Virus record (IMG/VR): IMGVR_UViG_3300045136_000099
DNA: 47,636 nt
Strand: one strand, 5' to 3'
Origin: a virus
Under the pieces are notes generated by a model. That model did not search any database. It saw only the letters and a list, made by a program, of their open reading frames with translations, and was not told the origin of the DNA. Each line of letters opens with the position of its first letter. The stretch's first letter is position 1. The translations under genes and the position numbers were made by a program. Shown piece by piece: positions 15,788 through 38,030 of this stretch.

Positions 15788-15825
15788 CTATTCTTTCCGC
15801 TAACAGCCGTTAGTGGAAGGAATAG
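15788..15825 (+). terminator. 17-bp hairpin at the convergence point of the two operons
   Basis: CTATTCTTTCCGCTAAC-AGCC-GTTAGTGGAAGGAATAG. The two imperfect positions are G.U pairs only in + strand RNA. No U-tract follows. Confidence 0.5.
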
Positions 15826-15843
15826 CACCCCTACTTGCCTCGC

Positions 15844-16185
15844 TTACCCTCGGTGGCCTTCGTGGCTGCCGAGGGTTTTATTTTTGCGTATGTTCACGCG
15901 CTGCTCACTTTTAGTAGCCCATCGACAATTGCTTGGCTCGTAATTACCAAAAGGGTCGATTCGATCGAGCGTCATTCCATCTAGTCGTTCGCCCATGTCC
16001 GCCAGGAAGTTGTCGAAGGAGTCCCAGCGCTCGCAAACGCGGACACCGCGCCCGCCATATAGCGGGTAGTTCTCGTGCCTAGGGTTGCGGCAACGTTGCC
16101 GCATAGCCTGCCAACTTATGTACGTTGGTGTTCTGTTTCCGTTGCAGCCTCTATTTGGTTTCGATCGTGGACCTCTGCTTCCCAT
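15844..16185 (-). CDS. HNH homing-endonuclease-like protein (113 aa)
   Basis: YISWQAMRQRCRNP...YGGRGVRVCERW...LDRIDPFGNYEPSNCRWATKSEQ, a pattern common in phage HNH_3-type endonucleases. Terminal position in its operon. Confidence 0.7.
   Translation of the reverse strand: MGSRGPRSKPNRGCNGNRTPTYISWQAMRQRCRNPRHENYPLYGGRGVRVCERWDSFDNFLADMGERLDGMTLDRIDPFGNYEPSNCRWATKSEQRVNIRKNKTLGSHEGHRG
15846..15886 (+). terminator. Intrinsic terminator of the late (+) operon
   Basis: ACCCTCGGTGGCC-TTCGT-GGCTGCCGAGGGT stem (13 bp with two G.U pairs) followed by TTTTATTTTT. It overlaps the last codons of the - strand HNH ORF. Confidence 0.75.
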
Positions 16186-16585
16186 TCGCCTTCGGGCGCT
16201 TCTCTACAAGCGCATATGTATCGTCGGTAAATACAAATTCGCCGCGAGCCCGGCCCTTGTTCAGAGCCGAACGCCCGGCGAATCTCTCTGCCGGCTGAAC
16301 ACCCTGGAGGATGTCGCCGAATCCGCTGGGGCCGTTACGAGCCAGGAACCTCCGCACCCTCGCCGCTACCGTCTCGCTTGGCTTGGAAGGCGCAGTCGAT
16401 TCCGTACTTTCCGACGCGGACTCCGCAGCCCTCCTTCTTCGGCCGTTCTTTGGGCTTGTCGTCCGGGATTCCCTCGAGAACCTTTGCAGGGCCGCCCCCA
16501 GCATCCCCTCCGCTTCCGCTAGGTCCTCTCGGAGCTTCTTCACCCGCGTCGCCAGTGTCACCAGTTCGCTCAGCGTGTCCGTCAT
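16151..16585 (-). CDS. Hypothetical protein (144 aa from MTDTLSELV), possible winged-helix C-terminus
   Basis: Third-position GC rises in this frame from about 16590 downstream. It is the only ORF covering 16186-16334. It overlaps the tail of ORF 16335..17066 by about 250 nt, so the start is unresolved. Confidence 0.4.
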   Translation of the reverse strand: MTDTLSELVTLATRVKKLREDLAEAEGMLGAALQRFSRESRTTSPKNGRRRRAAESASESTESTAPSKPSETVAARVRRFLARNGPSGFGDILQGVQPAERFAGRSALNKGRARGEFVFTDDTYALVEKRPKANGKQRSTIETK

Positions 16586-17066
16586 CGGCGTCAAGGTAGA
16601 GCGAGATGATGTCCTGGTCAACGGGGAACAGGAAGCCATTAGCAGCTAGCGCGTCGAGCATCTCCTGGTCGGGGTCCCGCAGGTACAGCGCGTGAGGGAA
16701 GGGGTTGCTCGACGACTTCACACCCGGCGGTGGCTCGAAGTTGATCCGACGCGCGGGGAACCACACGTGCGTGCAGTGCGGGATCAACTCGGCGAACCAC
16801 TTCGTTGACGGGTCCCACCGAAGAAGGAAGCAGAACCGCGTGTGCCGCCAGTGCTTCACCCATTTGAGAACCTCGCCGTGGGCATACGGATACAGCCCGT
16901 CAGACCCTTCCTCGAGCATCAACCGACGCGACGCCCTTATGTGGCTGCGCGGATTGCTGCACGGATCGAGGTCGAACTTCCCCAGCAGGTCGGCCAGCCA
17001 TTTGGGCGTGCACCAGCTGTCGCGGCCCTCGCTCTTGCCGCTGCCGCCGGCCGGGTTGGCGCTCAC
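16335..17066 (-). CDS. Dam-like (phage N6-adenine methyltransferase family) protein lacking a clear (D/N)PPY motif
   Basis: DSWCTPKWLADLLGKFDLDPCSN and PSTKWF...ARRINFEPP resemble the phage Dam family. Where NPPY is expected it reads DGLYPYAHG. GTG start in a GTGA overlap with the endolysin stop. The C-terminal ~80 codons are low-complexity and overlap the next ORF. Confidence 0.45.
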   Translation of the reverse strand: MSANPAGGSGKSEGRDSWCTPKWLADLLGKFDLDPCSNPRSHIRASRRLMLEEGSDGLYPYAHGEVLKWVKHWRHTRFCFLLRWDPSTKWFAELIPHCTHVWFPARRINFEPPPGVKSSSNPFPHALYLRDPDQEMLDALAANGFLFPVDQDIISLYLDADDGHAERTGDTGDAGEEAPRGPSGSGGDAGGGPAKVLEGIPDDKPKERPKKEGCGVRVGKYGIDCAFQAKRDGSGEGAEVPGS

Positions 17067-17752
17067 CGCATGTACAATTCCGGGTTCACCGGAGCGTAAC
17101 GGTCGACCGGCGAGAGCTCGAAGTGGAGGTGCCGCGCGTCACCGTCCTTCGGGTTGTCGCCGATCAGGCCGAGCTCGTCGCCCGCGTCGACGATGTCACC
17201 GACCGACACAAACAGCGAGTCCAAATGGAAGTAGCCGCTGCGCCAGCCGTTACCGTGGTCGATCCAGCAGCGGTACCCCGTGCCGATCTTGCCGGCAATC
17301 TGCACACGACCCCCCGCAGCCGCGACGGCCGCGGTGCCGTACGGTACCACCCACTTGGGCTTACCATCGGGCGTACGACCAGCGCACCCCTTGTCCCCCA
17401 CGAAGTCCGGCTTATCACCTTCCTGCCAGCGGTAGAAGAGGTCCACGCCGTTGTGATCCGGGCGGCTCGGGTTGACGGACTTGAAGCCCGAGGTCACCAC
17501 CGCGCGGCGCCCACCCGGCAGCTCCGGCAGCGGGCAGTTGAGGAACCGCGTCGGACTGGCGACCGGCACAACGAGGCCGATCGTATGCTCCATCACCTTC
17601 TCGAGCTTCGCCATCGTCTTCGGCCCCGGCTTGCCGTCGACGAACAGGCCGTACGAGTCCTGGAAGTGCTCCACCAGCGCGACGATGTGCCGCGCCGTTA
17701 GCCGGCCTTCCTCGAGCTCGCGCCGAACGTATTCCTCAGCGGTCATCCCCAT
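17063..17752 (-). CDS. Endolysin: peptidoglycan-binding domain plus M23 (LytM-type) metallopeptidase
   Basis: DSYGLFVDGKPGPKTMAKL (PG_binding_1-like), HNGVDLF (HxxxD) and DARHLHFEL (HxH). AAGGAG lies 4 nt before the ATG at 17752. An alternative ATG is at 17746. Confidence 0.75.
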   Translation of the reverse strand: MGMTAEEYVRRELEEGRLTARHIVALVEHFQDSYGLFVDGKPGPKTMAKLEKVMEHTIGLVVPVASPTRFLNCPLPELPGGRRAVVTSGFKSVNPSRPDHNGVDLFYRWQEGDKPDFVGDKGCAGRTPDGKPKWVVPYGTAAVAAAGGRVQIAGKIGTGYRCWIDHGNGWRSGYFHLDSLFVSVGDIVDAGDELGLIGDNPKDGDARHLHFELSPVDRYAPVNPELYMR

Positions 17753-18141
17753 ATGACTCCTTTCGCTTTCGTGATGCCGGCGACGTACCTCCGAAGGTGG
17801 AAGTACGGCCGGTACATCGCGTCGGGTAGAAGGAGGAAGGGAGTGCGCTCCTCCTCCATTAGCAGGCTGTTTGGGATGTCCTCGACGAGTCCGACATAAG
17901 CCGGCTCGGCCATCGGAATCTTCATCAGGCTGAAGACATCCATGTGCGCGCCGAGAGTGGCGAGTTGGGGGTGCACGACCTGGAGACCCAACTGTTTGCC
18001 GTCCTCGAGCTCCAGCACCCCTAACTCGTACTTGTCGCGCGTGGTGATGATGCGCGTGCCGGCGGATAGTGGGGCCATGATGACCGCCACCTGGGGATTC
18101 CGATGGAACGGCGCCGGCAGCAGCTCAATCCACGACTTCAC
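17743..18141 (-). CDS. Hypothetical protein (132 aa)
   Basis: GTG start in a GTGA overlap with the RNA-ligase stop (GGTGCGTGAAGTCG). The rest of ORF 17743..18564 overlaps the ligase gene. Confidence 0.5.
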   Translation of the reverse strand: MKSWIELLPAPFHRNPQVAVIMAPLSAGTRIITTRDKYELGVLELEDGKQLGLQVVHPQLATLGAHMDVFSLMKIPMAEPAYVGLVEDIPNSLLMEEERTPFLLLPDAMYRPYFHLRRYVAGITKAKGVIWG

Positions 18142-19280
18142 GCACCCTTCCGCATGAGGTACTCCGCGCCGACGTACTTCGCCTTGCGACGGGGACCCTC
18201 GAGCGACTCGACGACAACGCCCTCGCGGATCTGGCTGTTGTCGAAGTACGACGGACCATCTGAGAGCAACCTCACGCCGTGTGAGCTGAACTTCAGCGGG
18301 TACCTTCCCGTGATGACCGGAACGGCCGGCAGGTCGCAGTCCGCCAGAACGCACTCGCGCTCGAACGGAATCAGCCATCCGCCATTTGGATGCTGTATGT
18401 CGAAGCACGCGAGACCGGGACCGTCCTCGGGCTTGCGGCCGTAGGTGAGGTCCTGGATCTTCCGCCCGCCGTAGGTGTAGCCGTACAGCTCGCCGTAGAA
18501 GACGTAGCCCTTGTAGTCCTTCGTCTTCTCCGCGAGGCGCATCCGCTCGGCCGCGTCCATCCACACGTCCTCGCCGTACCAGTGGTTGCCGTTACCGCCC
18601 TTGATCGTGCGGTGGCTGCCAACGACGAACTTCCAGCCGATGGGGATACCGAGGAAGCGACGGCGCACCCAACCGAAGCGGAAGTTGGTGCCGTGGATCT
18701 TCTCCGTGATGACGACCGGCTCATCCTCCTCGAACAGCCGTGGCAGCTTCTTCAAGCTGTCGACGGTGTAGACCGGGAACGGCTGCTTCTTCGGCTTCGA
18801 GCTCGGTGGCGTCGGGCCATTTGCGTCCGGCTCAGGCGCCCGGTAGTACGTCACGCCGAAGTGGTCGGCGCACCCCTCGCCAAAGGAGAGCTGCGATGGC
18901 GCGGGCACAAGCAGCCCTTGAGAGAACACGCCGCGCAGCCTCGCCGCCCTCAGCCGAAACACCTCCTTGCTCGCTCCGTCCGGCCGCTCCTTCAGGAACG
19001 CGAACGCCGAGTGGCTCGTCGGCAGGAGGCAGTCCACGCTGAAGTACGCCGCCAGATCCCCCGGGTTGTACTCGCCCTTCCGAACCACCACCTCGTAGGC
19101 CGTCTCGCCCGTCCCCGCCATCTCGAAGCGCGCGATCTCGAGTCGATCCGCGTTCGGGTGCGGAAGGATCCTCGTAATACGGACAATCTCGGCTGTGAAC
19201 TCCGTGTCCGTTCGCTGGCCACATGAATCCGCACTCGACGCAGAACCGAAAATCGATTTGAGCTTGCTCCACAGCTTCAC
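18138..19280 (-). CDS. ATP-dependent RNA ligase family protein with an N-terminal OB/tRNA-binding-like domain
   Basis: Nucleotidyl-transferase motifs ITEKIHGTN (KxxG), FYGELYG and RRKAKYVG. N-terminal ILPHPNADRLEIA is typical of the tRNA-binding OB fold. GTG start in a GTGA overlap with the MazG stop. Confidence 0.65.
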   Translation of the reverse strand: MKLWSKLKSIFGSASSADSCGQRTDTEFTAEIVRITRILPHPNADRLEIARFEMAGTGETAYEVVVRKGEYNPGDLAAYFSVDCLLPTSHSAFAFLKERPDGASKEVFRLRAARLRGVFSQGLLVPAPSQLSFGEGCADHFGVTYYRAPEPDANGPTPPSSKPKKQPFPVYTVDSLKKLPRLFEEDEPVVITEKIHGTNFRFGWVRRRFLGIPIGWKFVVGSHRTIKGGNGNHWYGEDVWMDAAERMRLAEKTKDYKGYVFYGELYGYTYGGRKIQDLTYGRKPEDGPGLACFDIQHPNGGWLIPFERECVLADCDLPAVPVITGRYPLKFSSHGVRLLSDGPSYFDNSQIREGVVVESLEGPRRKAKYVGAEYLMRKGA

Positions 19281-19618
19281 CGATCGTCCCCCGAACCGTG
19301 CAGCACCCCTCGCTCCTTGCGGTCGGCGAGCTTGCGCAAGTTCGTCTCGGCAACGTCCTGGAGATCGATGCCCCACTGACGCGCCACTTCGCTGAGGTAC
19401 CAGAGGGCGTCCCCCAGCTCCTTCTTGAGCGCGAGAGTCGTCTCGACGCGATCACCACGATCACGCCAGAACTTCTTGATCTTCTCAGCCACCTCGCCGG
19501 CCTCGCCATTTAGACCCAGCGCCGGGTAGAGCCCGGGCGGGAGGGGTGCCACTAGGCTGTCTCCCACCGGGTACGCCGCGAACGTTGCGGCCTTCGCCTG
19601 GTACTCGTTGAGCTTCAC
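19277..19618 (-). CDS. mazG: MazG-like nucleoside triphosphate pyrophosphohydrolase
   Basis: LNEYQ...LGLNGEAGEVAEKIKK...ELGDALWYL...NLRKLADRKERG. GTG start in a GTGA overlap with the polymerase stop. Confidence 0.7.
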   Translation of the reverse strand: MKLNEYQAKAATFAAYPVGDSLVAPLPPGLYPALGLNGEAGEVAEKIKKFWRDRGDRVETTLALKKELGDALWYLSEVARQWGIDLQDVAETNLRKLADRKERGVLHGSGDDR

Positions 19619-21852
19619 TTCGCCTCGAAGTAGTTCGGCCCCCAACCGACCGAAACTTGCAAGGGCACCAGCAGAGGGGTGCCATTAGCCGTCGCGCTGA
19701 CCATGTGGTGCTTCAGGATCTCGGCCGCGCGTTCGACGTGCTCGACTGGCCCGATGGCCACCAGCTCGTCATGGACCTGCAAGACGATTCCAAATCCAAT
19801 CCGTTTGAATTCCTCGTCAGCTCCGATTCGCACCATCGCGTCGCTGATGATCTCGGCGCCCGTGGCCTGCATCGGGAAGTTGTAGCCACGGCGGTAGCCG
19901 CGAGCGCGAAGCCAGTCCGGCGCGGATTCGTCGGACTCCTCGTACAGCGGACACCATCGTCCACCGAGCGAGTAGATGCCGCGATTCTCGTCGATGTACT
20001 CGCGGCACCACGCCTGCCACTTGAACGGCCCCGGCACCGCTTCCGCGATACCGGCCAGCATGTCGCCGGCCACCTTCTCACCGATCGGCTTCCCGTCCGG
20101 CCCCGGCAGAATCGAGAACCCGTAAGCCCCCTTGCCGTACTGAAGACCGTACCAAACGGTCTTGATCATGCCGCGCAGAATCGCGCCGTAGGGGTGCTTC
20201 TTGAATTCGCCGCTCGGTATCTCGTCGACGTGCTTCCCGGCGTACGGGCACTCCACCAGCTCGCCGTCCTTGAGGCACTTCTCCGGCACCCGCCAGCCGA
20301 GGTAGTGGCCGAACACCCGCTTGGCGTTCTCGACGTGAATGTCCGGTGCCCCCGGCGCGACCATTGCCTCCAGCTGCGTGTCGCCAAACAGCCGCTTGCA
20401 TAGGTCGGCCAGGATCACGACTTCCAGCGCCGAGTAGTCGGCGACGAGAACCACGTGACCAGGGGGTGCTATGATGGCTTTGCGGACTTGGTAGAGATCA
20501 ACCTCCTCGCGGTTCGTTAGTTGCTGCGCCTCGAGCACCCCTTTCACACCCAGCCGGCCGGTGACGGCACCGTTTCGGTCGTCGCTGTCGCCCGCCGGCC
20601 CGCAGATGGGATTCACCCATCCGCCCGAATCGCGCATCTTGAGCAGGTACTTCTTCTGCCCGCGCACCGCCCGCAGCCGGAGAATGTGCTCAATCAGCTG
20701 CTTCGCCGGCTTGTGGTTCTTCGCGATCCAATCCAGCGCCGCGCCGTCGAGCTTGATTTGGCCCCGCTTGACCTTGCCCTTCTTCCACACGGGCGAGCGC
20801 GGGAACTCGAGCAGGTCGAAGAAGTCCGCCATTTGCGGCGGCGAGCTCCAAATGGCGTCGATGTCCTCGTCGTCGCGGAGGTACCACTCGTTGTCCTCGG
20901 GGAAGACGTTCTTGCGATACCAGCGACGCAGCCACTCCAACTCGGCCGCCTCATCGGCGCACGCTTGGTTGTACTTGTCACTCGCGTACTGGACATCGAT
21001 GGGGAAGCCGCGCCGCTCCATCAGGACGATCTCGTTGACGACCTCCTGGTTGAAGCCCGGCCGCCCGTCGTCGTGATAGACGTACGGTGCTGGGTCGGCC
21101 TCCATCTCGCACAGCTCCTCGACCTCCACGGCGGCAATCGCGTCAACTGCCGCGTAGTCGACGAGCAGCGGATGCCGCTCGTGGCCCGGAACGATGCTCT
21201 CCAGTGAGTACTCGGCGTCTACCTCCTTCTCCTCGACGAATGTCTCGGTGAATTCGCGCTTCGTCTTGATGTGCCCCTTGCGCAACCGGCACCCCTCAAC
21301 ACCACAGGAGCACTCGGTGACCTTCACCTTGCGCTGCTTCTCGACTTGGATCTTCGCCCGGTAACGAACCACGTCGACGAATTCGCAGACCGGCTCGTAC
21401 CCCAGCTTCGACACCATCAACGACTTCAGGCCGAAACCACCCGCCGAAACCAGCTCGGGCCACACCCACCGCGCGAAGTCCAGCGTGTTGATGGCGCCGC
21501 GCAGCTTGATGCCGTGGTTGGCGCATGCGTGGTCGTCCACCGGCTGGTTGTGGATGCACTTGAGGATCGACTCGTCCTCGAGCAGCTCCCGAATCGGCGG
21601 GTACTCTAGAGCAGCAGCAGGTAGCACCCAGCCGCGAGCGCGGTGATAGCCGCGAGGGCTAAGGCGCTTCGTGCGGATCGCGATCGAGAAGACATGAATC
21701 TTCGCTCGTCCGACGCAGGACTGCTTCCGCACGTCCACGTCGTAGAACTCAGTGTCGAACCCGATGATCCGAGCACGACGACAGCGCTCGACCAGCTCAT
21801 CCCACTGCTCGGGTCGATCGAGGTACTTGACCTCATTGATCCCGGATGACAT
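19615..21852 (-). CDS. Family-A DNA polymerase with N-terminal 3'-5' exonuclease
   Basis: Exo I IGFDTEF, motif A DYSALEVVILA, motif B RGMIKTVWYGLQYGKG, motif C LQVHDELV. Confidence 0.9.
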   Translation of the reverse strand: MSSGINEVKYLDRPEQWDELVERCRRARIIGFDTEFYDVDVRKQSCVGRAKIHVFSIAIRTKRLSPRGYHRARGWVLPAAALEYPPIRELLEDESILKCIHNQPVDDHACANHGIKLRGAINTLDFARWVWPELVSAGGFGLKSLMVSKLGYEPVCEFVDVVRYRAKIQVEKQRKVKVTECSCGVEGCRLRKGHIKTKREFTETFVEEKEVDAEYSLESIVPGHERHPLLVDYAAVDAIAAVEVEELCEMEADPAPYVYHDDGRPGFNQEVVNEIVLMERRGFPIDVQYASDKYNQACADEAAELEWLRRWYRKNVFPEDNEWYLRDDEDIDAIWSSPPQMADFFDLLEFPRSPVWKKGKVKRGQIKLDGAALDWIAKNHKPAKQLIEHILRLRAVRGQKKYLLKMRDSGGWVNPICGPAGDSDDRNGAVTGRLGVKGVLEAQQLTNREEVDLYQVRKAIIAPPGHVVLVADYSALEVVILADLCKRLFGDTQLEAMVAPGAPDIHVENAKRVFGHYLGWRVPEKCLKDGELVECPYAGKHVDEIPSGEFKKHPYGAILRGMIKTVWYGLQYGKGAYGFSILPGPDGKPIGEKVAGDMLAGIAEAVPGPFKWQAWCREYIDENRGIYSLGGRWCPLYEESDESAPDWLRARGYRRGYNFPMQATGAEIISDAMVRIGADEEFKRIGFGIVLQVHDELVAIGPVEHVERAAEILKHHMVSATANGTPLLVPLQVSVGWGPNYFEAK

Positions 21853-22478: not shown

Positions 22479-22870
22479 TTGGCCTCCAGCTCGTCGACCG
22501 AGTAGGTCAGCACGAGCTCACTGTCAGCCGAGTCGGCGACTAGATACCGCTCACCGAGCACCCCAATCACCGCAACCCAATGGTCGCCGGGACTACCGCT
22601 GTTCCAAGCAACCACTGCCGGCCGACCGCGCCTTACCGCGTGTTCGAGCTTCAGCAGTGCTACGTCTCGCCGCGCTTCCCGAAGCACCCACGGGCTACAG
22701 CCGTCGATCTTCGATGCCGCCTTGAGAATCCCGCGTGTGGGGGTGCCATTAGTGGCGCTTGTCCCGCACGCCTTCTCCAGCTCCTCAGCCGACCGCTTGA
22801 TGCCGAGGGCCTCGAGCGCGTTCTTCAGCGCAAACGGCCCGCAGTTAGCCTGAGAGTCCTGCATGCGCAT
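22442..22870 (-). CDS. Peptidase C39-like / papain-fold cysteine peptidase domain protein
   Basis: QANCGPFALKNAL (catalytic Cys context) and GDHWVAVIG (His context). GAGGAGG lies upstream of the ATG. Confidence 0.5.
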   Translation of the reverse strand: MRMQDSQANCGPFALKNALEALGIKRSAEELEKACGTSATNGTPTRGILKAASKIDGCSPWVLREARRDVALLKLEHAVRRGRPAVVAWNSGSPGDHWVAVIGVLGERYLVADSADSELVLTYSVDELEAKWRDTKYEGVVL

Positions 22871-24503: not shown

Positions 24504-24768
24504 TCGGCTCCTTCTCGATGATGTCGTACTCGCCGTTAGCGACTCGCGCCTCGGCGAGCTGCTCCTCCGTCGTCTTCGACTCGTCCGGCTCCGGGCGCGG
24601 GATCGAAACGAGCGCCCGCATCTCGTAGCCCTTGTTGGGGTGCCGATCGCGCAGCCACTTCACGGATGCCGCGCACTGCTTCGCGCCCCAATACGTCGGT
24701 TTGAACTTCATCACGGAGACGCCGAGACCGTTGACGATCTCGAAGCCCCGCAGGATCTCGTTACTCAT
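24484..24768 (-). CDS. Hypothetical protein (94 aa)
   Basis: ORF only. Confidence 0.5.
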   Translation of the reverse strand: MSNEILRGFEIVNGLGVSVMKFKPTYWGAKQCAASVKWLRDRHPNKGYEMRALVSIPRPEPDESKTTEEQLAEARVANGEYDIIEKEPNVDAGQ

Positions 24769-24829
24769 GCTCCTCCGTCAGCGCGCACATGAGGTACAGC
24801 GCCAGCAGCAACAGCACCCCTAACCCCAC
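24761..24829 (-). CDS. Possible 22-aa hydrophobic micro-ORF bridging two genes
   Basis: My translation is VGLGVLLLLALYLMCALTEEHE. The GTG overlaps the upstream TAG, and its end overlaps the next ATG. Confidence 0.25.
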   Translation of the reverse strand: MGLGVLLLLALYLMCALTEEHE

Positions 24830-25445: not shown

Positions 25446-25450
25446 CTCAC

Positions 25451-25783
25451 TCACTGCGCGGTGCCGCGTGGCCCGCGAATCAGGAAGGCCCATCGAGTGC
25501 TCTCCGGCGTGTACGCCTCGACCACCCGACCCTTGAATCGACTACCGTAGAACTCCCGAGCCCAACGCTCAGCAGCACCCCAGCTCGGGAAGCGACGACC
25601 GGGACCCTTCGCGCGCCCTAATGGCCCGCTAATGACCCAATCGTCGGGATGCCGGTCCGAATAGTTGAACGCGACGCCTTCAACCTCGTCGTCGTCCATC
25701 CAGTATTCGGGTACGAGGTGCTCTGCTTCTGTTATCGGATCGTCGAGCTCGGGGATGTCGTCAGGTCCCGGAAGCGGACGCAT
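25451..25783 (-). CDS. Hypothetical protein (110 aa)
   Basis: ORF only. Confidence 0.5.
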   Translation of the reverse strand: MRPLPGPDDIPELDDPITEAEHLVPEYWMDDDEVEGVAFNYSDRHPDDWVISGPLGRAKGPGRRFPSWGAAERWAREFYGSRFKGRVVEAYTPESTRWAFLIRGPRGTAQ

Positions 25784-30456: not shown

Positions 30457-30527
30457 AGGGGTGCTAGCTGTGCGGTGAATAGCTGCTTTGCTGCACCCTA
30501 TCTCTCACCGCCCCTGCTGTCGCGAGT

Positions 30528-30897: not shown

Positions 30898-31100
30898 AGG
30901 CTCAGAAATGAGTGGCCACCGATGATGGTCCACGCAACCCTCCATCGATCCCACCAGTCCAACTCGGCGAGATCGAGGAAGGGGTGCAGCGCGCCACGTT
31001 GATGCACCCGCCGGTAGCACCAGGGAATGCCGGTGATTCGGGACACGTCGATGGCTTCGTCGTCGATTAGATACGCAACCGGGCCGTTGAGGACTGGCAT
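30891..31100 (-). CDS. Hypothetical protein (69 aa from MPVLNGP)
   Basis: ATG preceded by GAGGGGTGCGC in a short spacer after the upstream stop. Confidence 0.45.
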   Translation of the reverse strand: MPVLNGPVAYLIDDEAIDVSRITGIPWCYRRVHQRGALHPFLDLAELDWWDRWRVAWTIIGGHSFLSLC

Positions 31101-31113
31101 GCGCACCCCTCGC

Positions 31114-31254: not shown

Positions 31255-31454
31255 GCTGCTAGCTCCTCGATGCGACGCGCGGCCATGACCGCGTCGTGCT
31301 CGTCGTCAAATGGACCGGCGATGTCCAGCAACTCGCTGGATTCATCGTCATTGATGAAGACGTAGAAGCCGTGGATCGCTGGGGTGCCATTGATGGCTAA
31401 CCCTTCATCGTCGTGGTCCATCGGATGCTTCATATGATAAACATATGTTTTCAT
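31251..31454 (-). CDS. Hypothetical acidic protein (67 aa)
   Basis: ORF with ATGA overlaps at both ends. Confidence 0.5.
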   Translation of the reverse strand: MKTYVYHMKHPMDHDDEGLAINGTPAIHGFYVFINDDESSELLDIAGPFDDEHDAVMAARRIEELAA

Positions 31455-31945
31455 CGATGGGCCTCACGCCCGAACGCTCCCGGCGTATGCAATCGCGTTG
31501 GCCATTTGACCCACGCGGGATCCTTCGCGCGAACCTTCCACGCCTCGACGAGTTGATTGTTCGTCTTGGGCAGCTGGATGCGTCCGACGATGTTGCTGGT
31601 TTTCTGGCGACGTGCGGCGGTAGCCTCCTCGGCAAACGCCAGCTCGCATTCCCACTTCGCCCGAGCTTCATCGAGGTAAGGGGTGCGATTGTCGTAGCGT
31701 GGTCGGGCGAACTCCACCCGCTTGCCCGTCCAACGATGGACGTACGCCAGCTTCTCGTTGTCGCCGATCACGATGTCGGTGACATAGTGGTTGCCCACCT
31801 TGAGCTCGACCTCCTTGATCGGCAGCTCATAGCGCGCCAGCCGCCAGTGACGACCGTGGCCGATGAGGTGCTCTCCACAGAATCGGAGCCCGACCATTAG
31901 CGCACCCCTTTCCTTGTCCTTGATGGACTTCTGACTAGCCGCCAT
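31451..31945 (-). CDS. Hypothetical protein (164 aa; alternative start at 31897)
   Basis: ORF only. The alternative ATG at 31897 is preceded by AGGGGTGCGCTA. Confidence 0.5.
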   Translation of the reverse strand: MAASQKSIKDKERGALMVGLRFCGEHLIGHGRHWRLARYELPIKEVELKVGNHYVTDIVIGDNEKLAYVHRWTGKRVEFARPRYDNRTPYLDEARAKWECELAFAEEATAARRQKTSNIVGRIQLPKTNNQLVEAWKVRAKDPAWVKWPTRLHTPGAFGREAHR

Positions 31946-33119
31946 AGAACGTCCCCTCGCTCGTCAGTCGACGACGAGCAGCGATGATGTGGTCGATGAC
32001 TTGGAACTGCTCGGCGGCCGGCAAACGCGCCGCACGCCGCTTGGCTGCGATGTAGTCCTTCTCGGTCTTGGCATTTGAAATGCACACACCAGAGTCATGA
32101 GTCTCGGTCGATGCGTCGTCAAGAGGCACCAGGCGAGAGATCTGACGGCCGCGCGCTGATTCGATGGCGCCCCCACCAAGGTAGTGCGCTCGTAGCGTGT
32201 CGCCGTCGTCCGCGTGCCCAAGGGCCGCCGCCACCTGTTCGACACCGCCGCCGAGTCGTACTGCGGTGGTCGCTCCCGAACCGCGTAGACCGTGCGGCGT
32301 GACGCGATCCACTCCCGCCAGCTTGCAGAACTTGACCGTCCAGTAGTGCAGCCCGTGGCGCGTCAGGTCGCCGAACAGCTTCTCGCCCGGCTGTTTACCC
32401 GCCGCCAGCTTGAGGAGGCGCTCGCGCAGCACCCCGGGCACTTCGATCTCGCGATCCGAGTGCTCCGTCTTGCTGTCGCGAATCCACAGCAGCCAGCCGT
32501 CATCGTCCAGGTCCTCCACCGTCCGCTTGACAACCTCGCTCGCCCGCAGTCCTAACATCAGTGCCGTTAGCACCGCCGTGGCCTCGAGCTCGTGGGCCTT
32601 CTCCTCGAGCAGCACCAACAAATAGCGCCTGGTGGCGTTGACGCGGAGCTTGGGCTTACCACGCCGCTTCTGCCCGACGGGCTTGATGTCGGCGAACGGG
32701 TTGAGCCGCAAATAGCCGCGCTGGATGCACCAGTCCACGAACCGCTTCACGTAGGACAGCTCGCCGTGATGAGTGTCCGGCGCGACCTCCTTGACTCGAC
32801 GCGCGTAGAGCTCGCGAGCGAGGGGTGCTGTTAGGGCTGCCAGCGGCCGGTCGCCTTCGTCCACCCGAAGGATGGCGCGCAGACGGTAGCGCGCCGTGTC
32901 CTTGCCCTTGCCGGCGTATTCGGCGAGGTACATGTCCAGCGCCTCTAGGACTGTCCGACTGCCCGCCGCCGCGTTGTACGCATCCCTTTCCGCAATGGCT
33001 TGGGCTTCTGTCTCATACGCAACAGTCTCGCTAGCGCCGTTTGCTGCAAAGTAGACAATTCGGAACTTCCGACCGTGCTTGTAGGGTCCAACGGCATGCT
33101 CACGTCCTTGCTTTGGCAT
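31935..33119 (-). CDS. int: Tyrosine recombinase (phage integrase)
   Basis: LGLRASEV (Arg box), HGLRGSGATTAV (HxxR) and LGHADDGDTLRAHYL (His...Tyr). AGGAGG lies 7 nt before the ATG of MPKQGREH. Confidence 0.85.
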   Translation of the reverse strand: MPKQGREHAVGPYKHGRKFRIVYFAANGASETVAYETEAQAIAERDAYNAAAGSRTVLEALDMYLAEYAGKGKDTARYRLRAILRVDEGDRPLAALTAPLARELYARRVKEVAPDTHHGELSYVKRFVDWCIQRGYLRLNPFADIKPVGQKRRGKPKLRVNATRRYLLVLLEEKAHELEATAVLTALMLGLRASEVVKRTVEDLDDDGWLLWIRDSKTEHSDREIEVPGVLRERLLKLAAGKQPGEKLFGDLTRHGLHYWTVKFCKLAGVDRVTPHGLRGSGATTAVRLGGGVEQVAAALGHADDGDTLRAHYLGGGAIESARGRQISRLVPLDDASTETHDSGVCISNAKTEKDYIAAKRRAARLPAAEQFQVIDHIIAARRRLTSEGTFYGG

Positions 33120-33381
33120 CGGGGTACTCCTCCTAAACATTTCAAGGGTGCTAACCCGCTCGTACCCGAAGGGGTGCCACTAATCGCAGCGTTAGGTGCC
33201 GCGATTTGCCGCCGCGATGAGTCCACTGCGGCGGTAGCGACGGAGTGCCTCGGGGCGTGAGTGCGCGCACGGTCCGCGTCGACGACCCACGACTACGGCC
33301 ACGCACCCTTGAGTGGGCGGCGGAACCACGCCAGGTCAAACGCGGTGTATTCCACGGGCCGGGATGCGATGCGGTACGGCA

Positions 33382-33981
33382 TTAGCACCCCTCCTCGATC
33401 TCGGGCTTGTGCGGCGACTGCGAGCACCCGAAGTCGGACAGCACAACGCGGTCACCCGGCCGGATCATGACGTTACTGGCTTTGTAGTCCGTCATCGCGG
33501 TAACGCCGATCGAGCGGAGATCCTCGACGATGCCCAGGATATTCATCGCAGCGCATCCCCACGGCGTGAGTTTGTGCTCGCTCTTGCCACCGTTTGCGAA
33601 GTAGTCGACGATCTCGGGTAAGTTCCACGTCGTTAGCCTGAAACTACGGGGCTGAGTCGGAACGCCGTAGTTGTAAATGCACTCTGGCAATGGTTGCAGG
33701 CGCTTGGCTACGTAGCAGTAGAGCCGTTCGCCGTAGACGTTGTATTTTGGCAACGCCCACACTCGTTCTACGCGCATCAGGTTTGGACACTTGCCCTCCG
33801 CTTGCGCACGACGCGCAAGCTCGGCGGTGTGCGCATCACGCCAATCGTCCGTCACCTTGACCACGCGATGATCGTCCAGCGGATAGACCATCGCGAAACA
33901 CCCGGACCCCAGGCACTCCGTATCAAGCGCCGGAACGGGATAGCCATTTGCCTTCAGAGTGCTAACAGCGTGCCGCAACAT
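33382..33981 (-). CDS. Minimal protein-kinase-fold protein (199 aa)
   Basis: LGSGCFAMVY...VVKV (Gly loop plus Lys), TDYKASNVMI (catalytic loop) and VLSDFG (DFG). AGAGAGG lies 4 nt before the ATG. Confidence 0.6.
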   Translation of the reverse strand: MLRHAVSTLKANGYPVPALDTECLGSGCFAMVYPLDDHRVVKVTDDWRDAHTAELARRAQAEGKCPNLMRVERVWALPKYNVYGERLYCYVAKRLQPLPECIYNYGVPTQPRSFRLTTWNLPEIVDYFANGGKSEHKLTPWGCAAMNILGIVEDLRSIGVTAMTDYKASNVMIRPGDRVVLSDFGCSQSPHKPEIEEGC

Positions 33982-34337: not shown

Positions 34338-34344
34338 GGGGTGC

Positions 34345-35184
34345 TCAATGCTCCACGAGCGCGATCACGCGCCGAATCTCCGCGAGACAGGCATCCCGAT
34401 CGTAGGTCTGGTTTAGCAGGATGGCATCGTGAGGGAGTGCGCCGCACCCCTGTAGACGGTCAAACGTACCGCTGTGGTTCCAGCCGCGCGTCATACCCAA
34501 ACCATCGCCAGCGTCGAACGGAAGCGTAAGACGCGCTCGGAACGTTTGGGTGCGGTGAACGCCCGCATGGCACATGACGCTCGCGATGATGTCCGTGCGC
34601 ACCGGCTCCGTCGTTTCCTTCAGAGTGATCAAGGTGGCGCCCCAATGCGGATCAACTCGAGACTCCACGCACGACGCTCCTAGCAACCGCACGACATAGC
34701 CAGCCGATTCGAGTACGTCGCACACGATGACAGCGCTAGCGCCAGCCCAAAACAACTGCTCGCGCGTGAGCCACCACGGGCCACCACACAGCGCTACCAC
34801 GTCGACGCACGTAACACCGTTGCTCCACACACGATGCGAAGTTCGCCACGCTTGATCCCACTGACCACGAAGCGCGCGATCCACGTCTAGCTCGTCGCCA
34901 TCATCAGCCCAACGCGGGCGACGCTTGCGAGACTTCGCCTCGGGCGGTGCGATCTCGGAGCGGATCTCCGCAAGCCTCTCGGCGCCAGCCGCCCATCCGT
35001 CACGTAGCAGTGCCGTAGCGTCGTGATGCGAGCGGATACCACCGAGATCTATGTCGCCACGCCGATCAACGTAGGTCGCGCGCTCGTAGGAGCGGTTAGC
35101 GTGGTAGAGCGGCTCGCTGTAGACGTTCACGTACTCATCGAACGCAAACAGACGGGCGACCATGTCATCGCTCTGATACAGCAT
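34345..35184 (-). CDS. Hypothetical protein (279 aa), partner of the AAA+ ATPase
   Basis: ATG in a TGATG overlap with the ATPase stop. MoxR-type ATPases usually pair with VWA proteins, but I see no DxSxS MIDAS motif here. Confidence 0.5.
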   Translation of the reverse strand: MLYQSDDMVARLFAFDEYVNVYSEPLYHANRSYERATYVDRRGDIDLGGIRSHHDATALLRDGWAAGAERLAEIRSEIAPPEAKSRKRRPRWADDGDELDVDRALRGQWDQAWRTSHRVWSNGVTCVDVVALCGGPWWLTREQLFWAGASAVIVCDVLESAGYVVRLLGASCVESRVDPHWGATLITLKETTEPVRTDIIASVMCHAGVHRTQTFRARLTLPFDAGDGLGMTRGWNHSGTFDRLQGCGALPHDAILLNQTYDRDACLAEIRRVIALVEH

Positions 35185-36464
35185 CAGCGCACCCCCACCT
35201 TTGAAAGCTCGTCCGTGGTCCACCCTGCCGTAGCGCGACGGAGTGCACGCTCGATCGTCCAGCCGCCCTGCACCATGCGGGCAACGTTGAGGAGGAATCG
35301 CGTGCCGACGATGCGCCGGAGCTTTTGCTCGCTCACGCGATCACGAATCGACCACACACGCACACAAATGGAATCGTCGCCCACTAGCTCGCGTTCAAGG
35401 TCGCGATCGTAGTCGACCTCAATCATCGTGCCCACGAAGCGATCGAGAAACGCCGCGTCCAGCTGGTTGCGTCCGACGTACTGGCGATCGGTACCCGTGC
35501 CCCACGTGTTGGCGGCGCAGATGATCACGCTGTCAGGATGGCGCGTGGCCGTCGGCTGCTCTGCACGGTCCACGAGCGAGAGGTGGCCGTTTGCCGTGGC
35601 CGATTGGATGCAAAGCATCATGTTGGGATCGCTACCGTCCACCTCATCAAACAGGAACACGCCACCACACTCGTACATGCGCACGAAGTCAGTACCCTGA
35701 TAGCTGGTTGCGCCCGTAGTGAGGTTTGGAATTGCGCGCCCAACGATCTTGCCCTCGCTAACACCGGCGCTACACGAGATGCCAGCCCACCCACGAGCGT
35801 TGTCGCGCGTGCTGTCCAGTGCGCGAGCAAGGTCCGCCGCGAGCGTGGTCTTGCCCGAGCCAGCCGGGCCCACAACGTAGAAGTTACGGAACCCCATCGC
35901 GTACAGCTCCATGATCTCCGCGAGCGCCTTGTGAGTGCGCCCGCTCACCTTGGCGACGGTGGTACCGTTCACGCGGAAGTCGTGCACGCGCGCGCCCATC
36001 GCTCCGGTCTTGACGGCGTCCATGATGATCGCCGTGGCGATCTCGCTGGCACGACGCTCGATGTAGGCTGCGATCGTGGTACCGAGCGCTCCGTAGACAC
36101 TGAGATCGATCCCGGGTGCGCTGGTTGGTTTGGAATCCATTTGAATCTCGCCAGCGTCGCCATCATCGAGATCAGGGGTGCTCGTGCTGTCGCTGCTAGC
36201 CGACGCACCCCTGGGCGAGCAGATGCGATAGGGCTTGCCCGCTTTGCCAGCGCTGCACCGCCCGTGCTCGGCGCATTCGCGATAGGTGGAGTACGGCCCG
36301 ACCGTCCAAACGAGCGTGCCGTGGACCGGGCAAGCGGGGTGCTCGGGATCGGCCGCGTTGGTACCCTCAGCGGGGCAACCCTTGTGAGCGGGCTTGAAAC
36401 CTTTGAGGGTGTCGTACGCGACGACGGCGCCGCACGCGTCGCATTTCTTGCTGTACTTGGCCAT
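35184..36464 (-). CDS. MoxR/CbbQ-type (AAA_5-like) AAA+ ATPase with an N-terminal zinc-ribbon
   Basis: Walker A VVGPAGSGKTTLA, Walker B VFLFDEVDG. N-terminal CDACG...CPVHG...C. Start at MAKYSKK just after the upstream stop. Confidence 0.65.
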   Translation of the reverse strand: MAKYSKKCDACGAVVAYDTLKGFKPAHKGCPAEGTNAADPEHPACPVHGTLVWTVGPYSTYRECAEHGRCSAGKAGKPYRICSPRGASASSDSTSTPDLDDGDAGEIQMDSKPTSAPGIDLSVYGALGTTIAAYIERRASEIATAIIMDAVKTGAMGARVHDFRVNGTTVAKVSGRTHKALAEIMELYAMGFRNFYVVGPAGSGKTTLAADLARALDSTRDNARGWAGISCSAGVSEGKIVGRAIPNLTTGATSYQGTDFVRMYECGGVFLFDEVDGSDPNMMLCIQSATANGHLSLVDRAEQPTATRHPDSVIICAANTWGTGTDRQYVGRNQLDAAFLDRFVGTMIEVDYDRDLERELVGDDSICVRVWSIRDRVSEQKLRRIVGTRFLLNVARMVQGGWTIERALRRATAGWTTDELSKVGVR

Positions 36465-36466
36465 GA

Positions 36467-36670
36467 CTAGAGCACCCCCAGCAATGCGTTCGCTTGGTAG
36501 ACGAGATCGGGGCGACGTAGCTCCAACGCCGCTGTTAGCGCGCGATTGACACACGCGCGAGCCAACATCGGGCGACGTAATGCGTATGTCAGCGCGAGAT
36601 CCGTCTCGCAAATAAAGACGTGCAGCATTGTGCCGTCAAGACGGCAGGCGATCCAGGCGTAGCGATTCAT
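36467..36670 (-). CDS. First early gene, hypothetical (67 aa)
   Basis: GGAGG lies 4 nt before the ATG. First ORF of the - strand operon. Confidence 0.5.
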   Translation of the reverse strand: MNRYAWIACRLDGTMLHVFICETDLALTYALRRPMLARACVNRALTAALELRRPDLVYQANALLGVL

Positions 36671-37248: not shown

Positions 37249-37398
37249 AATAGCGACAGCAGTTAAGGTTTTGGCGGTGCTACGGCGCAGTCAGTGAGGG
37301 GTGCTGATAGCTGAGTCAGCTAGTCACTGACGAGCAGCCGACAGGCCGACCAGCTAATAGTGGCTTGTAAGGCGCTAATGGCTGAGTAGCATAAGCAC

Positions 37399-37611: not shown

Positions 37612-37668
37612 CGGCACCCCTAAATAGCAGTCTTGTCGCGTCGTTAGTAGTAGGCATATGAAAACCAT

Positions 37669-37698
37669 TTGACAGTGGCAGGTCAATCGCGGTATAAT
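37669..37698 (+). promoter_or_regulatory. Perfect-hexamer sigma70 promoter (P2) upstream of the tRNA
   Basis: TTGACA, 18 nt, TATAAT. Confidence 0.75.
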
Positions 37699-37709
37699 AC
37701 TTACGAGAA

Positions 37710-37723
37710 GTGGGAGCTCCCAC
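37710..37723. promoter_or_regulatory. Perfect 14-bp palindrome at about +5 to +18 of P2 (operator candidate)
   Basis: GTGGGAGCTCCCAC is its own reverse complement. Confidence 0.4.
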
Positions 37724-37797
37724 CCACGCAGGTGACAGCGCAAAGGGAGACACGCTGAGTCGCCGGCCGATTACGGCGGATGACGGAGAAGCGTTGA

Positions 37798-37875
37798 CGC
37801 GGGATGAGGAAGTCCGGTCCATCCGCTCGGGCTCATTACCCGAGAACGCTGGTTCAAATCCAGCTCCCGCTACCA
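37798..37875 (+). tRNA. Initiator-type tRNA-Met (anticodon CAU), 78 nt with encoded CCA
   Basis: Hand-folded cloverleaf: CGCGGGA-TG-AGGA-AGTCCGGTCCA-TCCG-C-TCGGG-CTCATTA-CCCGA-GAAC-GCTGG-TTCAAAT-CCAGC-TCCCGCT-A-CCA. U8, A14, G18G19 and A21 are in place. It has three G:C pairs next to the anticodon loop and a 1:72 mismatch (C.U). The anticodon stem and T loop are identical to E. coli tRNA-fMet as I recall it. Confidence 0.8.
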
Positions 37876-37879
37876 ATTC

Positions 37880-37950
37880 GAGGCCACGTCCATCGCTTGG
37901 AGCCGTTTGCAGGGGTGCAGCGGGACCTCCAACTCGTGGGTGGCCTCAGC
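37880..37950 (+). ncRNA. tRNA-shaped structured RNA E1 (non-decoding cloverleaf)
   Basis: GAGGCCA-CG-TCCA-TCGCT-TGGA-G-CCGTT-TGCAGGGGTGC-AGCGG-GACC-TCCA-ACTCG-TGGG-TGGCCTC-A-GC, followed by TTTTCT. A paralogue, E2, has compensated stems. Confidence 0.65.
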
Positions 37951-37956
37951 TTTTCT

Positions 37957-38030
37957 GACGGGCTGGCTGGTCGCTCTAGGCCACTTGCAGGGGTGCAGTG
38001 GAAGCTCTGGACTCGCCACAGCCCGTCACC
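37957..38030 (+). ncRNA. tRNA-shaped structured RNA E2 (paralogue of E1)
   Basis: GACGGGC-TGG-CTGG-TCGCT-CTAG-G-CCACT-TGCAGGGGTGC-AGTGG-AAGC-TCTGG-ACTCG-CCACA-GCCCGTC-A-CC, followed by TTTTCT. Confidence 0.65.

Follow-up and report, generated by a model that had tools for sequence, protein, structure and literature searches.

Co-occurrence of an over-represented seven-letter word and a structured RNA displaying it in an uncultured phage lineage

Why does a phage genome carry a single asymmetric seven-letter word many times more often than its composition predicts, and why is the same word displayed by two small RNAs encoded in that genome? The question was raised by IMG/VR virus record IMGVR_UViG_3300045136_000099, a stretch of 47,636 nucleotides (nt) that was analyzed over its full length (the window). 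The word is GCACCCC/GGGGTGC, counted in both orientations, and the RNAs, E1 and E2, are encoded next to a tRNA-Met. As judged by comparing the window with its relatives, the word is very probably coupled to the E RNA.

Abundance and distribution of the word

Exact counting on the + strand gave 41 copies of GCACCCC and 33 copies of GGGGTGC (74 in total), and the excess reported in a first-pass annotation from by-eye estimates of about 37 and 30 copies was upheld. Expected numbers for the two orientations together were 17.1 from base composition and 8.9, 6.7, and 10.7 under Markov models of orders 1, 2, and 3, respectively. The word was the most over-represented 7-mer of the window (order-2 z score of about 26), and its maximal-order z score was 7.1, compared to 3.6 or less for the other words listed. 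Its density was 1.55 per kb in the window versus 0.13 per kb in 46 unrelated GC-rich loci (483 kb), in which 65 copies were observed and 76.9 were expected.

The 8-mer GCACCCCT/AGGGGTGC, to which the first-pass annotation had drawn attention, was present in 22 + 16 = 38 copies (1.2 to 3.2 expected), 30 of which lay within 15.8 to 38.1 kb. Because the nested 7-mers already predict 36.6 copies in maximal-order statistics, the core is the 7-mer and not the 8-mer. T followed the word at 38 of the 74 sites, that is, at 26 of 40 sites in the early minus-strand block, 4 of 4 in the promoter/RNA region, and 8 of 30 in the late blocks. Sites in the early region mostly extend to AGGGGTGC, matching the E RNA apex A-GGGGUGC. 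Conservation around the sites was limited to positions −1 and +7 when 15 nt on either side were inspected; flanks beyond these positions were variable, which ruled out an extended motif or hidden repeat.

Sites were found in all six sense/frame classes, with 54 of the 74 inside genes (called by us on the basis of GC content at third codon positions, GC3) and 20 outside. Orientation relative to transcription was balanced, with mRNAs reading GCACCCC or GGGGUGC in a ratio of 37:37 in the window and 114:102 in eight relatives. Upon synonymous-codon shuffling within each gene, which preserves protein sequence and per-gene codon usage, a mean of 33.6 sites (maximum, 41) was left, about 20 of them being the fixed noncoding sites; coding sites numbered 54 versus about 14 after the shuffle, an approximately fourfold excess. 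Codon, dipeptide, or composition bias was ruled out by this shuffle and by the Markov models of orders 0 to 3, and the proposal that the constraint acts at the nucleotide level was confirmed by the use of all frames, the noncoding sites, and the balanced orientation.

Spacing between sites was near random (coefficient of variation, 0.87, versus 0.98 for random placement; largest gap, 2.3 kb). The strand split of 41:33 was without polar blocks, a runs test pointed toward alternation (P = 0.08), and no excess of close inverted site pairs was found along the genome. Regular spacing, pairing of opposite sites, and polarity were ruled out by these three measures.

The E RNA family and the word in relatives

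The RNA region of the window contains the following features.

37669..37698, + strand: sigma-70 consensus promoter TTGACA-18-TATAAT (12/12 match), upstream of tRNA-Met, E1, and E2
37798..37875, + strand: tRNA-Met (CAT) (ARAGORN; Rfam RF00005, 42.1 bits)
37880..37947, + strand: E1 RNA, 68 nt, rod-like (model R1, 81.1 bits; predicted fold, −36.6 kcal/mol, z = −3.0)
37958..38026, + strand: E2 RNA, second copy of the family (model R1, 74.5 bits; predicted fold)

The tRNA-Met lies immediately upstream of E1 in the same transcription unit. The E1 apex, GCA-GGGG-UGC, carries GGGGTGC at 37912-37918, and the E2 apex carries it at 37990-37996; folds and family alignment agree with the first-pass annotation that the word sits at the apex of both tRNA-shaped RNAs. 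Counterparts in relatives occupy the same place, between tRNA-Met and the packaging genes, and their sequences align. With covariance model R1, 19 copies of the E RNA were found in 14 related genomes. In their alignment, which was fitted to R1 and so favors structure, 94.6% of cells form standard pairs, compensatory changes occur in 20 of 25 pairs, and covariation was 0.737, compared to 0.20 in shuffles (0 of 500 reached the observed value) and 0.06 to 0.14 with slid partners. A separate MAFFT/RNAalifold run on eight E sequences gave compensatory changes in 18 of 26 pairs. Comparative evidence of this kind demonstrates a real, conserved structured RNA, predicted to be a 68-nt rod with a 3-by-3 internal loop. 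GGGGTG is its sole invariant run, followed by C in 18 of the 19 copies. Neither E1 nor E2 matched any Rfam 15 family even at an E value of ≤10 (only the tRNA-Met was matched). Searches for the E RNA pattern in bacterial genomes gave chance matches only and no credible RNA, and apex-free pattern scans for further apex variants in IMG/VR likewise gave chance matches only.

For most relatives, the sample comprised 12 to 22 kb around the portal gene. GCACCCC was again the top or near-top 7-mer in the relatives fetched first (portal identity, 57 to 77%). In what follows, E+ genomes carry the E RNA, and E− genomes are those in which the tRNA/RNA region was covered and is without E RNA; a C apex is one reading GGGGUGC. 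Counts of the word are given as observed/expected, with expectations from Markov order 3.

window, E+, C apex: 74/10.7
L002, E+, C apex: 24/6.3
L003, E+, C apex: 31/6.0
L004, E+, C apex: 22/6.0
L005, E+, C apex: 16/4.1
L006, E+, C apex: 42/9.6
L008, E+, C apex: 19/6.7
L009, E+, C apex: 10/2.4
L134, E+, C apex: 23/5.6
L159, E+, C apex: 33/6.1
L160, E+, C apex: 39/10.8
L161, E+, C apex: 26/6.6
L279, E+, C apex: 13/4.6
L162, E−: 10/9.1
L145+L151 (one circular contig), E−: 4/8.4
L007, E−: 5/2.3
L010/L011, E−: 0 observed
L012/L013, E−: 7-8/5.5-8.2
L133, same clade as L162, RNA region not covered: 8/6.9

The word was enriched 2.8- to 6.9-fold in the 13 tabulated C-apex E+ genomes and was not enriched in five or six E− relatives. 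Its density in E+ genomes was about 0.5 to 3.3 sites per kb over both strands, being highest in L006. L159, L160, L161, L162, and L279 were fetched after the hypothesis had been formed, and all five were as predicted; in the three most enriched of the later-fetched genomes the word was the rank-1 7-mer. The early halves of two E+ IMG/VR genomes contained 17 (8.1 expected) and 10 (2.7 expected) copies, and the trait is therefore genome-wide there too. In the portal tree, E+ clades surround the E− clade L162/L133, and the remaining E− genomes fall outside as outgroups, which implies at least one gain and one loss of the RNA, each matched by the word.

Enrichment was confined to the exact word. 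Pooled over the 13 C-apex genomes, GGGGTGC was observed 372 times versus 85.7 expected (4.3-fold), and ratios for the one-letter variants GGGGTGT, GGGGTGA, and GGGGTGG were 1.4, 0.8, and 0.8, respectively. Genomic enrichment of other conserved E RNA blocks (TCGCTC and GACTCG) was ruled out, with pooled ratios of 0.8 to 1.0. A dependence of the base before the genomic word on the apex looked promising in L005 and was inconsistent in L002 and L009. A replacement RNA and word in E− relatives was also sought; ATGGGGA, the top word of L162, is not in the L162 tRNA/RNA region.

A change of apex was found in L138, a 6.9-kb bog contig with an E RNA at 1081-1149 whose apex, AAGGGGUGUGG, reads GGGGUGU. 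In this contig, GGGGTGT/ACACCCC occurred 7 times versus 1.1 expected (third-ranked 7-mer) and GGGGTGC 2 times versus 2.5 expected. Together with L137, an overlapping contig from a sister sample, there were about 8 GGGGTGT sites in about 10 kb versus about 1.5 expected; one of them is the RNA itself, and the excess without that copy has a Poisson probability of about 1e-3. The finding is in the predicted direction of apex/word co-variation, in a single lineage with little sequence. No relatives of the GGGGUGU lineage at >70% TerL identity were found on long contigs, and its nearest relative, L279, has a C apex. As a separate observation, the most over-represented 7-mer of L137/L138 was AGCGAAA/TTTCGCT (10 counted versus 0.5 expected in two overlapping contigs; e.g., L138 902, 4759, 6494, 6520, and 6832), two copies of which lie 26 bp apart after the portal gene.

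Individual sites turn over. The single site in the portal gene of the window is shared with L002 only, and the sites of other relatives lie elsewhere in that gene. Over 14 orthologous genes and five relatives, 17 of 60 window sites were conserved, compared to 7.7 expected for random 7-mers at the same divergence. These alignments show that selection maintains density rather than position, with some purifying selection on sites and most sites replaced over time.

Such turnover, together with strand symmetry, frame independence, and occasional inverted hairpin pairs, resembles uptake signal sequences (USS) and DNA uptake sequences (DUS). We nevertheless consider it quite improbable that the word is a host signal (uptake-, Chi-, or KOPS-like [FtsK-orienting polar sequence] or a repair bias) gained by the phage through amelioration or recombination and unrelated to the RNA, its match to the apex being a coincidence or side effect. 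The apex is invariant down to about 50% portal identity while genomic sites turn over, which indicates that the apex is under purifying selection of its own. Close relatives without the RNA show no enrichment, nor do one-letter variants of the word; the variant apex has its matching variant word; and strand polarity is absent. Moreover, unrelated GC-rich viral and bacterial loci from similar sources show no enrichment, and known host signals are less dense than the 3.3 per kb reached in L006. The word is not a by-product of translation signals, composition, or host-wide bias alone.

A phage protein specific to E+ genomes was sought by gene-content association, and none was found. None of the genes for the methyltransferase, the HNH protein, the integrase, and AAA_5/DUF7192 follows the RNA/word trait among near-complete relatives; the genes for the Dam-like methyltransferase and HNH protein are missing from E+ genome c8, and the AAA_5/DUF7192 pair was present in 7 of 13 E+ relatives (in the sampled range) and in no E− relative and was missing from two near-complete E+ genomes. 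Nor does the word behave as a target of restriction-modification or methylation, as it is enriched rather than avoided and neither the Dam-like methyltransferase gene nor the HNH gene tracks it. Among the three meanings offered in the first-pass annotation (a host-specific word, the site of a phage protein such as the atypical Dam-like one, and a target and partner of the E1/E2 RNAs), the idea of the Dam-like protein as reader or modifier of the word is not supported, as its gene does not follow the trait; the E1/E2 idea alone gained real comparative support, in that RNA presence, RNA absence, and one apex variant track the genome-wide word.

Local contexts of the sites and genome organization

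The sites, located by exact match, are listed below; strand − denotes GGGGTGC on the + strand.

1403..1409, −, GCACCCC site
1724..1730, +, GCACCCCT site
2941..2947, +, GCACCCCT site inside a gene, followed by TGACA (GCACCCCTTGACA)
4762..4768, +, GCACCCC site
6190..6196, +, GCACCCCT site
6485..6491, −, GCACCCC site
6580..6586, −, GCACCCC site
7181..7187, −, GCACCCC site
7870..7876, +, GCACCCC site
8435..8441, −, GCACCCC site
8728..8734, +, GCACCCCT site
10235..10241, +, GCACCCC site
10574..10580, −, GCACCCCT site
12193..12199, +, GCACCCCT site
12729..12735, −, GCACCCC site
13270..13276, +, GCACCCC site
13350..13356, +, GCACCCC site
14067..14073, −, GCACCCC site
15157..15163, +, GCACCCC site
15825..15831, +, GCACCCCT site in the convergent intergenic region of the late and early blocks
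17384..17390, +, GCACCCCT site
17968..17974, −, GCACCCC site
18015..18021, +, GCACCCCT site
18870..18876, +, GCACCCCT site
19303..19309, +, GCACCCCT site
19543..19549, −, GCACCCCT site right after a candidate GTG start (TAGTGGCACCCCT)
19676..19682, −, GCACCCCT site right after a candidate ATG start (TAATGGCACCCCT)
20191..20197, −, GCACCCCT site
20463..20469, −, GCACCCC site
20535..20541, +, GCACCCCT site
21289..21295, +, GCACCCCT site
22558..22564, +, GCACCCC site
22740..22746, −, GCACCCC site after a TAATG stop/start overlap (TAATGGCACCCC)
24637..24643, −, GCACCCC site
24814..24820, +, GCACCCCT site, inverted partner of 24842
24842..24848, −, GCACCCC site, inverted partner of 24814
25575..25581, +, GCACCCC site
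25890..25896, +, GCACCCCT site
26539..26545, +, GCACCCCT site
27250..27256, −, GCACCCC site
27425..27431, +, GCACCCCT site
28843..28849, +, GCACCCC site
30458..30464, −, GCACCCCT site, 3' arm of a hairpin whose 5' arm is the imperfect AGGGUGC (− strand RNA)
30981..30987, −, GCACCCCT site
31103..31109, +, GCACCCCT site; mRNA AGGGGUGC 2 nt before ATG 31100 (Shine-Dalgarno-like)
31381..31387, −, GCACCCC site (CAATGGCACCCC)
31680..31686, −, GCACCCCT site
31902..31908, +, GCACCCCT site; AGGGGUGC 4 nt before ATG 31897 (Shine-Dalgarno-like)
32429..32435, +, GCACCCC site
32822..32828, −, GCACCCCT site
33171..33177, −, GCACCCCT site (TAGTGGCACCCCT), upstream of the recombinase gene
33385..33391, +, GCACCCCT site; GGAGGGGUGC-UA-AUG at a TAATG gene junction
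34338..34344, −, GCACCCCT site abutting TTGACA on the − strand (GCACCCCTTGACAC)
34444..34450, +, GCACCCCT site
35189..35195, +, GCACCCC site; GGGGGUGC 4 nt before ATG 35184 (Shine-Dalgarno-like, DUF7192 gene)
36175..36181, −, GCACCCCT site
36205..36211, +, GCACCCCT site
36336..36342, −, GCACCCC site
36472..36478, +, GCACCCC site; GGGGGUGC 7 nt before ATG 36464 (Shine-Dalgarno-like, AAA_5 gene)
37298..37304, −, GCACCCCT site in the promoter/leader region
37614..37620, +, GCACCCCT site just upstream of the second consensus promoter
37912..37918, −, GCACCCCT site, the E1 RNA apex (RNA reads AGGGGUGC)
37990..37996, −, GCACCCCT site, the E2 RNA apex (RNA reads AGGGGUGC)
38964..38970, −, GCACCCCT site
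40823..40829, +, GCACCCC site
41148..41154, +, GCACCCC site
41189..41195, +, GCACCCC site
42410..42416, −, GCACCCCT site in the portal gene, conserved in L002
43287..43293, +, GCACCCC site
43371..43377, −, GCACCCC site
45680..45686, +, GCACCCC site, 5' arm of hairpin 45670-45725
45702..45708, −, GCACCCC site, 3' arm of hairpin 45670-45725
46160..46166, +, GCACCCC site
46754..46760, +, GCACCCC site

Some sites stand in contexts that the first-pass annotation had singled out. The word lies 2 to 7 nt before the ATGs at 31100, 31897, 35184, and 36464, as well as in a Shine-Dalgarno-like position at the TAATG junction at 33385; GGGGUG can be read as a Shine-Dalgarno variant at these four or five early-gene starts. 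The proposed role in translation initiation holds to this extent and accounts for 4 to 5 of the 74 sites; about 69 other sites lack this placement. Three to five candidate starts read (A/G)TG-GCA-CCC-C. Three inverted pairs had been proposed to form hairpins. The one after a head gene, at 45670-45725 (inverted pair 45680/45702), is predicted to be strong (−28.8 kcal/mol, z = −4.3); in the one at 30445-30510, the partner of the word is an imperfect copy of it (z = −3.2); and the fold of region 24805-24860, with the pair 24814/24842, was no better than shuffles. The proposed abutment of GCACCCCT with −35 hexamers was found at 34338..34344 (− strand) and not at 37189, where the copy abutting TTGACA reads TCACCCC, which is not the full word, and where the consensus promoter uses the next TTGACA, at 37220.

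A few sites may thus have secondary local uses, as Shine-Dalgarno-like elements or in the stems of one or two hairpins. That the whole excess is a sum of such functions (the four or five sites before starts, two to four in hairpins, three to five after start codons) with Ala-Pro and Gly-Val codon pairs and GC-rich composition is hardly credible. The special contexts together cover fewer than 15 of the 74 sites, Markov models up to order 3 expect at most 11 copies, and coding sites number 54 versus about 14 after the shuffle, with all frames and both senses in use; the Markov, frame, and codon-shuffle results refute it for the bulk of sites.

The window ends, 1-127 and 47510-47636, are identical, and this exact 127-bp overlap indicates a circular assembly of a complete 47,509-bp genome; it double-counts a few rare AT-rich k-mers. 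The genome is organized as follows.

1-15.8 kb, + strand: tail and late genes
15.8-37.2 kb, − strand: early, replication, and nucleotide-metabolism block
downstream of tRNA-Met/E1/E2, + strand: packaging and head genes

The early block encodes AAA_5, DUF7192, a tyrosine recombinase, ERF, a PD-(D/E)XK nuclease, SSB, a DnaB-like helicase, a dATP/dGTP diphosphohydrolase domain, a deoxynucleoside monophosphate (dNMP) phosphatase, a metallophosphoesterase, PolA, MazG, an RNA ligase, an M23 peptidase, the Dam-like methyltransferase, and an HNH endonuclease, and is followed by two perfect sigma-70 promoters and then tRNA-Met, E1, and E2. Among 50,697 phage records, no DNA match and no portal-protein match were found, and PolA matched only unrelated phages (identity, <30%). 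More than 170 portal homologues were found on 40- to 52-kb metagenome contigs (soil, rhizosphere, and bog) and none on a longer contig. No portal relative was found in 185,579 species-representative (GTDB) genomes, and the phage family was not seen as a prophage. Midway in the early operon, at 31935-33140, lies the tyrosine recombinase ("integrase") gene, which several relatives have conserved; despite this integrase, the family was not found integrated in the 185,579 species genomes or on contigs of >52 kb.

Several further observations concern the early block. Its first genes encode a MoxR/CobS-like AAA_5 ATPase (35184-36464) and the DUF7192 protein (34345-35184). Beside PolA lies a cluster of nucleotide-pool genes (19277-19645, 23889-24503, 24829-25368, and 23068-23958) for MazG, the dNMP phosphatase, the dATP/dGTP diphosphohydrolase N-terminal domain, and the metallophosphoesterase, which suggests removal of a canonical nucleotide and perhaps a modified base. 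The diphosphohydrolase domain had prompted the idea of a Z genome or other base replacement, which was dropped, as neither PurZ nor another base-synthesis gene was recognized in the window and no tie to the word emerged. The family A DNA polymerase (19615-21852) is a single 745-amino-acid protein in the window and in most relatives (P0258-P0360) was called as about 460 amino acids, the first 62% only, which suggests that the gene is split or interrupted in much of the family. An 11/12 promoter on the − strand (30557-30528) lies inside the block just upstream of the 30445-30510 hairpin.

Other strand-symmetric words were also over-represented beyond codon usage throughout the genome (e.g., at 20829/20849, 37229, and 37665), namely, CAAATGG/CCATTTG (28 versus about 11 after codon shuffle and about 3 in Markov models), CAAACGG/CCGTTTG (26 versus 8 after codon shuffle), CAAACAG/CTGTTTG (18 versus 7), and CTAATGG (19 versus 8), the last in part reflecting TAATG stop/start overlaps. 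CAAATGG was top ranked in the closest relatives, L002 to L004, too, but not in more distant ones.

Around the RNA region, the other perfect 12/12 sigma-70 promoter (37220-37248) drives a small open reading frame. The tRNA-Met heads the tRNA/E RNA cluster in nearly all relatives and, in our reading of the cmscan alignment, resembles an initiator tRNA, in that the first acceptor pair is mismatched and the anticodon stem has three G-C pairs in a row at its base. Interspersed among the E RNAs of close relatives are tRNA-like genes called by ARAGORN as tRNA-Trp(CCA) (L002 4779-4849 and 4928-4997, the latter containing GGGGGTGCT; L004 6342-6414), which the window lacks. A third conserved noncoding element was found at 38040-38250, between E2 and the first gene of the packaging module, and in L002 (5075-5200), L004 (6530-6625), L005 (6575-6660), L006 (6010-6125), and L162 (4175-4280). 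It consists of the blocks CAATAGCC...CGCTTGTCG...GCGGCGCGG...GGCGGCGCCTTTT with a terminator-like end, shows compensatory changes in 7 of 15 predicted pairs, and, unlike E1/E2, occurs also in relatives without E RNA.

Readings of the coupling and comparison with known systems

The explanation that we rank first, and hold tentatively, is that the word and E1/E2 are one accessory system of an uncultured soil-phage clade, with the apex recognizing the word. The apex would recognize the complementary strand, 5'-GCACCCC-3', alone or, more likely, as a ribonucleoprotein containing a core phage protein or one of the host, at any stretch of opened or single-stranded phage nucleic acid, as in replication or recombination intermediates, transcription bubbles, and transcripts. 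Such recognition would not depend on orientation, in keeping with the balanced orientations, and pairing by the apex would explain why the exact word alone is enriched and why the genome follows a change of apex. With sites about ten times as dense as in unrelated GC-rich DNA, the phage genome would become a multivalent "self" target, and candidate effects at the sites are priming, annealing, protection, packaging, or expression control. It is conceivable, and we offer this with somewhat greater reserve, that selection has spread a 7-nt word over the two strands of the phage genome, at about 1.5 sites per kb, and that the phage's own small RNA reads it, which would amount to RNA-guided, density-based recognition of "self" DNA or transcripts, an RNA counterpart of Chi or KOPS, with a recognition letter that can change from C to U and a genome that follows. 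Such a system could serve to recruit or exclude replication, recombination, packaging, or defense factors.

Several points weigh against recognition by the apex. The E RNA is known here from its sequence and predicted fold; in that fold, three of the seven letters (UGC) are paired, leaving a GGGG tetraloop, so that pairing over 7 nt would require the apical 3-bp helix to be opened. Seven base pairs are short for stable recognition without a protein, and gene content yielded no E+-specific protein. Co-variation was seen in one short lineage (6.9 + 5.6 kb, 7 to 8 sites), the base before GGGGTGC did not consistently follow the apex in other relatives, and presence and absence represent few independent events (about one gain and one or two losses), placed on a portal tree that may not represent the whole mosaic genome. 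Finally, word identity, that is, a shared reader, fits the data as well as complementarity does.

A shared reader would be a host or core phage protein that reads GGGGTGC on single- or double-stranded DNA and also binds the E RNA apex, such as a Chi reader of the RecBCD/AddAB type (the host's being the obvious one) or another single-strand-scanning enzyme; being read would be beneficial through Chi-like protection or recruitment, with the E RNA as a decoy, regulator, or cofactor. Taken by itself this is rather unlikely, and we rank it just below apex pairing, as almost as good an explanation. The same coupling facts apply to it, and the apex carries the word in the same sense. In L138, only the identical GGGGTGT was enriched and GCACCCC was not, although wobble pairing of U with G would be possible. 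The word is an asymmetric, G-rich 7-mer whose GGTG core recalls known Chi sequences (Escherichia coli Chi is GCTGGTGG), and a reader of host or core origin would fit the finding that no accessory phage protein tracks the trait. Permuted ends would agree with the 127-bp terminal overlap, and a polar signal could then be needed both ways. However, reader, RNA, and sites would all three have to change in concert for the word to go from C to T, relatives without the RNA show no replacement word, and Chi is read on the threaded 3' strand, a mode of reading that is not easily mimicked by a hairpin apex.

Whichever partner reads the sites, the virus appears to maintain a genome-wide signal plus a dedicated noncoding RNA displaying the same seven letters; that word and RNA were gained, lost, and altered together points to RNA-linked genome marking of a kind previously undescribed. 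If the RNA or a shared partner does read the sites, this would be a new principle for telling own nucleic acid from that of the host and would supply a role for the orphan RNAs, an abundant class, found in phage tRNA clusters. With a recognition element of seven letters and targets that can be counted, the system lends itself to direct testing, and seeking a genome's top over-represented k-mer in conserved RNA loops could, as a general method, reveal similar systems. A literature search for the word, and for the concept of a genome-wide word combined with an RNA, returned nothing relevant. We know of no described system that pairs a genome-wide over-represented word with a dedicated RNA displaying it; Chi, uptake sequences, and KOPS are, to our knowledge, all read by proteins and all found in cellular chromosomes.

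In its statistics, the word resembles Chi and the uptake sequences. As a Shine-Dalgarno sequence would, GGGGUG can pair to CACCUCC at the 16S 3' end, one of the pairs being G-U, but this covers <10% of sites, and antisense and intragenic copies are equally enriched. The stoperators of cluster A mycobacteriophages and the start-associated sequences of cluster K are also short asymmetric words repeated many times across a phage genome, some copies lying just before starts; those are 13-nt intergenic sequences of fixed orientation, the stoperators being read by the repressor, whereas most sites of the phage word (54 of 74) are inside genes, in all frames and in both orientations (sense to antisense, 37:37).

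The USS of Pasteurellaceae and DUS of Neisseriaceae are likewise strand symmetric and frame independent, occur about once per kb with occasional inverted terminator-like pairs, and turn over under maintained density. In the window, strand symmetry was present, and of inverted-pair hairpins only one strong and one imperfect example were found. Uptake sequences, however, are 9 to 12 nt long with flank preferences and belong to the genomes of competent hosts, and the phage core is 7 nt without a flank; neither an extended 9- to 12-nt consensus nor a host-genome property was found, the phage family was never seen integrated, and the trait follows the phage RNA rather than the environment.

On the RNA side, the nearest analogues are the P1/P7 c4 antisense RNA, which is processed from a tRNA-like context, and the IS110 bridge RNA, which resemble the E RNA in that the loop of a structured RNA sets the recognized sites and co-varies with its target. 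Co-variation of this kind was found as predicted in L138, as a single event on 7 to 10 kb. The targets of c4 and bridge RNAs number one or two, and their partners are known (the ant mRNA and a DEDD recombinase); for the E RNA, some 70 targets per genome would be spread over the two DNA strands, and neither a recombinase nor another protein tracks it.

Chi, like the phage word, is a short (5- to 8-nt), asymmetric, G-rich word that is strongly over-represented, independent of frame, and acts by density; its reader meets it on single-stranded DNA, and carrying it can benefit a phage. Over-representation beyond composition and codon usage was found here as well (74 sites versus 7 to 17 expected and 33.6 after shuffling). 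Chi is set by a host enzyme and is strand skewed relative to replication, whereas the phage word showed no polarity (41:33), which, with permuted ends, may not be required. The phage word is also far denser than Chi and is accompanied by a dedicated phage RNA, the loss of which goes with loss of the word.

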